Shown here: positions 13,801-14,138 of the stretch, piece after piece
Position numbering within the stretch: position 1 is the stretch's first letter
Layout: the number at the start of each line of letters is the position of its first letter
Assembly (NCBI RefSeq): GCF_056712565.1
Contig: NZ_CM160072.1
Direction: 5' to 3' (one strand)
DNA length: 64,000 nt
Program-made: the position numbers and the translations under genes
The notes under the pieces: generated by a model
Seen by the model: the letters and a program-made list of their open reading frames with translations, nothing else
Told to the model about the DNA's origin: nothing
Database searches by the model: none

Positions 13801-14138
13801 GCTATTTTTGATAGTTCATGCGGCTAATATGCTCTATATAGTGATGTTCCGATGACTTATGACTATATGGGGCAAATATGGTTACGCCAGTAAGCATCAG
13901 CAATTACATATCTCTTCCTGATGATTTTCCCGTTCGTAATATTGCACCTCAAGTAAAAGAAGAACAGGCCCCCTTCCTGATCGTCATTAAAATGTGATGT
14001 TAACAACTCTCTGATGCGTGACAGAACAACCGTCAGAGAGATGGAAATGCGATCCAGATCACAAATGCATTGTATTCACATCATTAACCGTTTTAAGATC
14101 ATTTCATCACTTTTTCGCAACTCACCCGATAATCTGTT

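Follow-up and report, generated by a model that had tools for sequence, protein, structure and literature searches.

In Escherichia coli K-12, the gene yneK (b1527; UniProt P76150, "putative protein YneK") lies between ptrR, also called yneJ, and ydeA, also called sotB. Published work describes YneK as uncharacterized and restricted to E. coli, Shigella and close relatives (PMC11540155, PMC12757027). In K-12, expression of the gene is very low (base mean of 14 reads) and goes up in a ptrR deletion mutant (log2 fold change of 2.78) (PMC9068703). Genomic SELEX in K-12 placed sites for the RpoH holoenzyme and for NtrC in the yneJ-yneK spacer, and for the RpoS holoenzyme near the 5′ end of yneK (PMC5493296, PMC8743547). 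yneK was also returned as a Scoary match for adherence, for which the authors suspected linkage rather than a direct role (PMC11540155). The findings below also show that the presence or absence of yneK in pangenome and association studies largely follows phylogroup.

Results

The ptrR-ydeA interval contains both ends of yneK

The window, i.e., the whole stretch of 64,000 nucleotides that was analyzed (contig NZ_CM160072.1), carries in this order sad (11430-12842, minus strand), ptrR (plus strand), an interval of 338 bp, ydeA (plus strand), marC (minus strand) and marR (plus strand). ptrR, at 12919-13800, is an ORF of 293 residues for a LysR-family regulator, with the Pfam domains HTH_1 and LysR_substrate, and it is labeled ptrR in identical genomes. 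On the right flank, ydeA (14139-15329) is intact; its 396-residue product, an L-arabinose/sugar efflux MFS transporter, has the Pfam domain MFS_1, and the dN/dS ratio of the gene relative to K-12 is 0.009. The interval runs from the ptrR stop codon to the ydeA start codon, at 13801-14138, and has the size reported in the initial annotation. As also stated there, K-12 has yneK at the same position; the gene has 371 codons there, and the interval is 1,342 bp long.

Over approximately 50 kb, the window is 99.4 to 99.6% identical to the genome of CFT073, the archetypal phylogroup B2 uropathogen, and its source is therefore very likely a strain of the B2 type. Within the 338-bp interval, a single base, at position 13820, distinguishes it from CFT073, and none from FDAARGOS_536. 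Elsewhere in the window, between ydfI and rspB (approximately 33296-33795), there are some 1,013 bp fewer than in CFT073, where ydfJ, for an MHS-family MFS transporter, stands; the alignment passes from position 12441 to position 13455 of the CFT073 locus at 33647/33648 of the window. This gap is probably another deletion pseudogene.

The homology of the interval to yneK and the breakpoints were read directly from alignments with K-12. The window is collinear with K-12 from 13500 to 13962, i.e., through nucleotide 85 of yneK (codon 28 plus one base), and from 13972 onward it is collinear with yneK nucleotide 1098 onward. Approximately 1,012 of the 1,116 bp of yneK are gone, and the parts kept are nucleotides 1 to 85, an 8-nt piece, AACAGGCC, equivalent to nucleotides 1042 to 1049, and the last 19 nt. 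The left-hand part (13878-13962, plus strand) comprises the start codon, codons 1 to 28 and one more base, with three differences from K-12 that are all synonymous. The right-hand part (13972-13990, plus strand) is collinear with nucleotides 1098 to 1116 of K-12 yneK and ends with the former stop codon TAA at 13988-13990. The remnant has the position of yneK, between ptrR and ydeA and on the same strand.

The native ptrR-yneK spacer (13801-13877, plus strand) is kept whole and is collinear with K-12, with two differences. It bears the translation start signals of yneK, including a GGGG sequence at 13869-13872, and presumably also holds the yneK promoter. An imperfect 19-nt inverted repeat is found in this spacer, at 13827-13845 and 13859-13877 (79% complementary, 13-nt spacer, core CTATATAGT and ACTATATGG). 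It overlaps the ribosome-binding site of yneK, is conserved in K-12, and could be a 5′-UTR hairpin or an operator.

The two ends of yneK are joined by a 9-nt deletion scar, AACAGGCCC (13963-13971, plus strand). Tiling against a full-length allele of the N96 type (see below) showed that the first 8 nt of the scar correspond to nucleotides 1042 to 1049 of yneK, and this match holds in every allele. A comparable 8-mer match was obtained in 4.6% of trials with a composition-matched random 9-mer. The loss would have occurred either as a single illegitimate deletion that left a 9-nt filler or as two nearby deletions, of nucleotides 86 to 1041 and approximately 1050 to 1097. No intermediate deletion allele was found.

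The 39-codon ORF is a pseudogene fragment of yneK

The junction shifts the reading frame, and the native start codon therefore opens a 39-codon ORF (13878-13997, plus strand) that ends at a fortuitous TGA, the former TAA of yneK being out of frame with it. Its translation, MVTPVSISNYISLPDDFPVRNIAPQVKEEQAPFLIVIKM, is exactly the one initially reported, and the GGGG sequence proposed as its ribosome-binding site stands 5 nt ahead of the ATG. Translation and alignment with K-12 divide the ORF into 28 YneK codons, an 11-codon frameshifted tail, EQAPFLIVIKM, and the TGA; the tail arises from reading on out of frame and does not belong to YneK.

The 39-residue peptide matched the NCBIfam model NF033404 ("YneK," an equivalog) with 48.3 bits (E = 6.6e-13), residues 1 to 33 aligning with profile positions 1 to 33. 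The curated cut-off of this model is 40 bits, and K-12 YneK scores 813.7 bits. The length of a YneK equivalog, approximately 371 residues, is not reached by the remnant, in which 28 of the 371 codons are in frame. The remnant thus belongs to the YneK family as a pseudogene fragment and not as a functional protein. In FDAARGOS_536, which is an identical genome, Ecol_AZ153, SCAID URN1-2021 and CFT073 (C_RS29250), NCBI's annotation pipeline PGAP labels the sequence equivalent to 13878-13979 a partial yneK pseudogene ("putative protein YneK, incomplete, missing C-terminus"). The ORF described here continues beyond the end of this PGAP feature, to 13997. Collinearity with K-12, the NCBIfam match and the PGAP label all bear out the initial proposal of an N-terminal yneK remnant. 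It is a pseudogene by-product of the deletion, not a new gene.

We also considered that the ORF may have been kept as a functional small protein, made up of the YneK N-terminal peptide and a new tail. It retains the native start codon, the ribosome-binding site and an intact upstream region, and the short allele is nearly fixed, being at least 99% identical in approximately 1,040 genomes. However, this identity is explained by how little the clade varies, the flanking genes being equally conserved. Two variant B2 genomes were compared base by base, and one of them has a nonsynonymous substitution, A13906C, that changes Tyr10 to Ser; the B2-type strain CUVET21-PYO5 lacks the whole remnant. The tail is a fortuitous out-of-frame sequence, and yneK in K-12 is itself barely expressed (base mean of 14 reads; PMC9068703). 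A conserved function of the peptide is thus very improbable, and we regard the ORF as a mere consequence of the deletion.

The short interval is derived

A short interval could in principle represent the ancestral, yneK-free state, with yneK gained later in non-B2 E. coli. Salmonella enterica, in which the gene order is glsB-sad-ptrR, 115 bp, then ydeA-marC-marRAB, has no yneK sequence in its ptrR-ydeA interval. The gene is AT-rich, with a GC content of 40% in the yneK module versus 51 to 54% in its neighbors, and has no wider homologues, and hence it was gained at some time. Nevertheless, the window holds both ends of yneK, of 85 and 19 nt, together with the 3′ hairpin described below, none of which is present in the true empty interval of Salmonella, whose homology to the window begins only at approximately 14045. 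Intact yneK is found at the same position in E. albertii and in most E. coli genomes. The E. albertii gene is syntenic and full length (380 residues, 68% identity) and is followed by the hairpin; the locus compared is 99.6% identical to that of E. albertii NBRC 107761. In addition, a full-length allele matching the 3′ side of the window occurs in approximately 19 E. coli genomes. These observations refute an ancestral absence of yneK, to which we assign practically no probability.

With the gene ends kept, an intact copy in E. albertii and an empty site of 115 bp in Salmonella, the interval is a deletion pseudogene, and its short form is derived, not ancestral. The combination that the initial annotation had set against its own proposal, namely, a peptide with no similarity to YneK in an ancestral yneK-free interval, is therefore not what we found: the yneK-free site is the 115-bp interval of Salmonella. 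The outgroups compared were E. albertii and Salmonella. Genome contigs were also scanned with the palindrome pattern TCTCTGAYG-N8-24-CGTCAGAGA, a search that was swamped by chance matches; among the matches listed and checked, just two loci were useful, one in E. albertii NBRC 107761 and one on a contaminated contig from a metagenome-assembled genome (MAG). The contig SMXE01000224.1 ("MAG: Caldithrix sp. isolate CR04bin15") encodes PtrR, YneK and YdeA proteins 100% identical to those of E. coli K-12 and almost certainly entered the MAG bin as a contaminant from E. coli.

The N96-type allele (strain N96, WP_000258550.1) is an intact yneK of 371 codons with 85% DNA identity to K-12 yneK. The segment 13972-14160 of the window, which includes the yneK 3′ end, the hairpin and the very beginning of ydeA, matches it with 98.4% identity, indicating that the right side of the deleted allele derives from that class. 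The flanking ydeA of the N96 type is 95.1% identical to that of the window, versus 98.7% for another lineage, L011. On the left side, the remnant has three differences from K-12 versus five from the N96 type. With one side nearer K-12 and the other of the N96 type, the parental allele was a mosaic or belonged to a third type. Between the N96 and K-12 alleles of yneK, dS is 0.58, versus 0.14 to 0.21 in the flanking ptrR and ydeA, and dN/dS is approximately 0.14. This suggests that there are two deeply diverged classes of yneK in E. coli, representing an old dimorphism or an import from a divergent Escherichia lineage.

A conserved hairpin follows the yneK stop codon

The inverted repeat that had been noticed upstream of ydeA, CTCTCTGA (14007-14014) and TCAGAGAG (14033-14040), is present. 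It is part of a hairpin located after the yneK stop codon (14007-14040, plus strand), with arms at 14007-14016 and 14031-14040, a 14-nt loop and no T-run. The stem has 10 pairs if one G-U pair is allowed, including six G-C pairs. A perfect 8-bp inverted repeat was found in 13% of shuffled versions of the interval and, taken alone, is not beyond chance. The predicted RNA fold has a free energy of −18 kcal/mol, with a z score of −4.8 relative to shuffles (−23.7 kcal/mol for the K-12 version). Because of this z score, and because the arms are conserved while the loop and flanks vary, we consider the inverted repeat to be a real feature.

The hairpin is present in all 13 Escherichia loci compared and, in each full-length allele, is located 3′ of the yneK stop codon. 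Among the eight distinct versions in these loci, 1 of 18 arm positions varies, versus 27 of 38 loop and flank positions, and conservation of the arms holds even though synonymous sites of the flanking genes are near saturation between E. coli and E. albertii (dS of approximately 1). The sole arm change, C to T at 14015, is a single event in the deletion lineage that keeps a G-U pair in the plus-strand RNA. The K-12-type and N96-type hairpins both have 10 pairs, their stems being extended at opposite ends. As the arms never co-vary, their conservation fits an RNA structure and a protein-binding DNA palindrome equally.

Salmonella has the conserved upstream region of ydeA but not the hairpin, and the palindrome therefore belongs to the yneK module. 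The inverted repeat is yneK's own 3′ hairpin; it was neither created by the deletion nor part of the ancestral upstream region of ydeA. The palindrome occurs at a median of one place per genome and at most three (1,135 places in all, 2 of them on plasmids), and there is no second copy in the interval. A REP/BIME-like repeated element was ruled out, since the palindrome is essentially single copy in each genome. An Rfam 15 scan of 12800-14400 gave no match with E values up to 1. The terminator scan made no call, and there is no U-tract past the stem on either strand; the stem is followed by ATGGAAATGCG in the window and by AACGGAAAACGC in K-12.

The hairpin lies upstream of a promoter-like region of ydeA

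The ancestral upstream region of ydeA (14045-14138, plus strand) is 72% identical to the ptrR-ydeA interval of Salmonella, with which it has the blocks CGTTTTAAGATC and TCGCAACTNACCCGA in common. From approximately 14048 to 14160, a segment that includes the first codons of ydeA, there are no differences from K-12 or L011, and the surrounding genes differ by 3 to 5%. The pattern suggests a constrained regulatory region. It contains a promoter-like sequence, TTGTAT-N18-TAAGAT (14070-14099), which we regard as the putative ydeA promoter; the hairpin lies upstream of this region. The promoter scan's own call was TTCACA-N16-GATCAT, at 14075-14102, and the scan returned two 9-of-12 promoter-like matches only, no more than in shuffles.

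The main alternative to an RNA hairpin is that a dimeric regulator of ydeA or yneK would bind the inverted repeat as a DNA operator. The perfect 9-bp arms are near-invariant between E. coli and E. albertii, their spacer being variable in sequence and constant at 14 nt, and the palindrome, devoid of a U-tract, is found some 30 bp upstream of the putative −35 element of ydeA. Nevertheless, Salmonella keeps the ydeA upstream region and has no palindrome. Furthermore, the sole arm substitution breaks the DNA palindrome while leaving a G-U pair in the plus-strand RNA, and both the K-12 and N96 types keep 10 pairs through extension of their stems at opposite ends. Compared by eye, the palindrome is unlike the published PtrR motif, TTCACGAATCGaGAA, for which the same comparison gave no convincing match in the interval. 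An operator thus appears unlikely, though it deserves consideration. We favor an RNA hairpin that probably marks or stabilizes the yneK transcript at its 3′ end and insulates ydeA from it.

yneK has been inactivated repeatedly

YneK belongs to 22 clusters among 5.8 billion proteins, and all the source names given are Escherichia or Shigella. No Pfam domain was found in it, and the single PDB match in a profile search was at chance level (E = 0.7). AlphaFold2 run on a six-sequence alignment yielded a model with a mean pLDDT of 53 and a pTM of 0.40, too poor for a meaningful fold search. Intact alleles have dN/dS ratios of 0.13 to 0.19, and by this measure intact yneK is a real gene under purifying selection.

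The contiguous short allele is present in at most 1,112 of the 5,426 complete E. coli genomes, or about a fifth, an upper bound that takes in a few joined matches such as that of JE86-ST02. At least 80% of yneK is present in 4,263 of these genomes, and the full-length divergent N96 type in approximately 19. The yneK deletion pseudogene is thus common, and it is already annotated and already known; no description of the B2 deletion was found in the literature searched.

Other inactivating events were observed at the locus. Outside the B2-type lineage, 1-bp frameshift deletions affect yneK at nucleotides 377 (CI5, Santai), 996 (CI5) and 849 (1297KP), and 10 of 31 evenly sampled "full-length" matches are 1,114 or 1,115 bp long. 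An IS1 insertion interrupts the gene in BUCT2930, and JE86-ST02 has a 466-bp deletion at the 5′ end. In CUVET21-PYO5, a 602-bp deletion equivalent to 13817-14418 of the window has removed everything from the yneK remnant through the hairpin and the ydeA upstream region into ydeA; with its first 93 codons gone, ydeA is left a pseudogene. Some predicted proteins join the LysR (PtrR) or MarR domains to YneK, for instance, a 534-residue protein with PF00126, PF03466 and full-length YneK, which implies further rearrangements or read-through fusions at the locus in single genomes.

The retained yneK 5′ region is now 260 bp from the ydeA start codon with the hairpin in between, and read-through from it into ydeA is conceivable. 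Accordingly, one may ask whether the deletion was adaptive and rewired ydeA, the yneK promoter reading into it over a short leader. A yneK 5′ region with in vitro sites for RNA polymerase holoenzymes has been kept at this short distance, and the allele is fixed in a successful clade. Against this, the hairpin still separates the yneK 5′ region from ydeA; frameshifts, IS1 and other deletions inactivate yneK independently with no change in spacing, as expected of simple dispensability; and CUVET21-PYO5 has also lost the 5′ end of ydeA. Judged from these sequence comparisons, adaptive rewiring would be improbable, and repeated loss fits a dispensable accessory gene better. Likewise improbable is a variant in which, in B2-type strains, the yneK 5′ region, the 39-codon ORF and the hairpin would form a new ydeA leader, through promoter capture, an upstream ORF and an attenuator-like stem. 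If true, extraintestinal pathogenic strains would have altered expression of the YdeA/SotB sugar and drug efflux pump, whose gene adjoins the mar locus.

Discussion

We conclude with high confidence that the interval is the scar of a lineage-specific deletion of yneK, with the native 3′ hairpin still in place. In the scenario that we propose, an AT-rich module of approximately 1.25 kb, consisting of the yneK 5′ region, the 371-codon gene and the 3′ hairpin, entered between ptrR and ydeA in an ancestor of E. coli and E. albertii. Some 1,012 bp of yneK were later lost in the phylogroup B2-like lineage of the window, leaving behind the 5′ signals, codons 1 to 28, the last 19 nt and the hairpin. 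The deletion brought the hairpin from approximately 1.1 kb to approximately 130 bp downstream of the yneK start. In RNA, the hairpin would most likely be a structure that defines or stabilizes the 3′ end, or a noncanonical terminator shielding the ydeA promoter from upstream transcription.

For annotation, the apparent small ORF is a pseudogene scar and need not be called as a gene. For the specialist, two points stand out: yneK is an Escherichia-only, AT-rich gene that is under purifying selection where intact and yet inactivated again and again, and the hairpin at its 3′ end, which has no U-tract, is strictly conserved.

Compared with K-12 yneK, the window shares the start codon, the ribosome-binding site and an identical sequence of the first 28 residues at one end, and the last 19 nt and the downstream hairpin at the other. 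It differs by the absence of approximately 1,012 bp and by the shifted frame, which leaves the 39-codon ORF. The hairpin itself is unlike intrinsic (Rho-independent) terminators in having no U run, and it is therefore not canonical; it resembles them as a stable, G+C-rich stem-loop placed directly after a stop codon.
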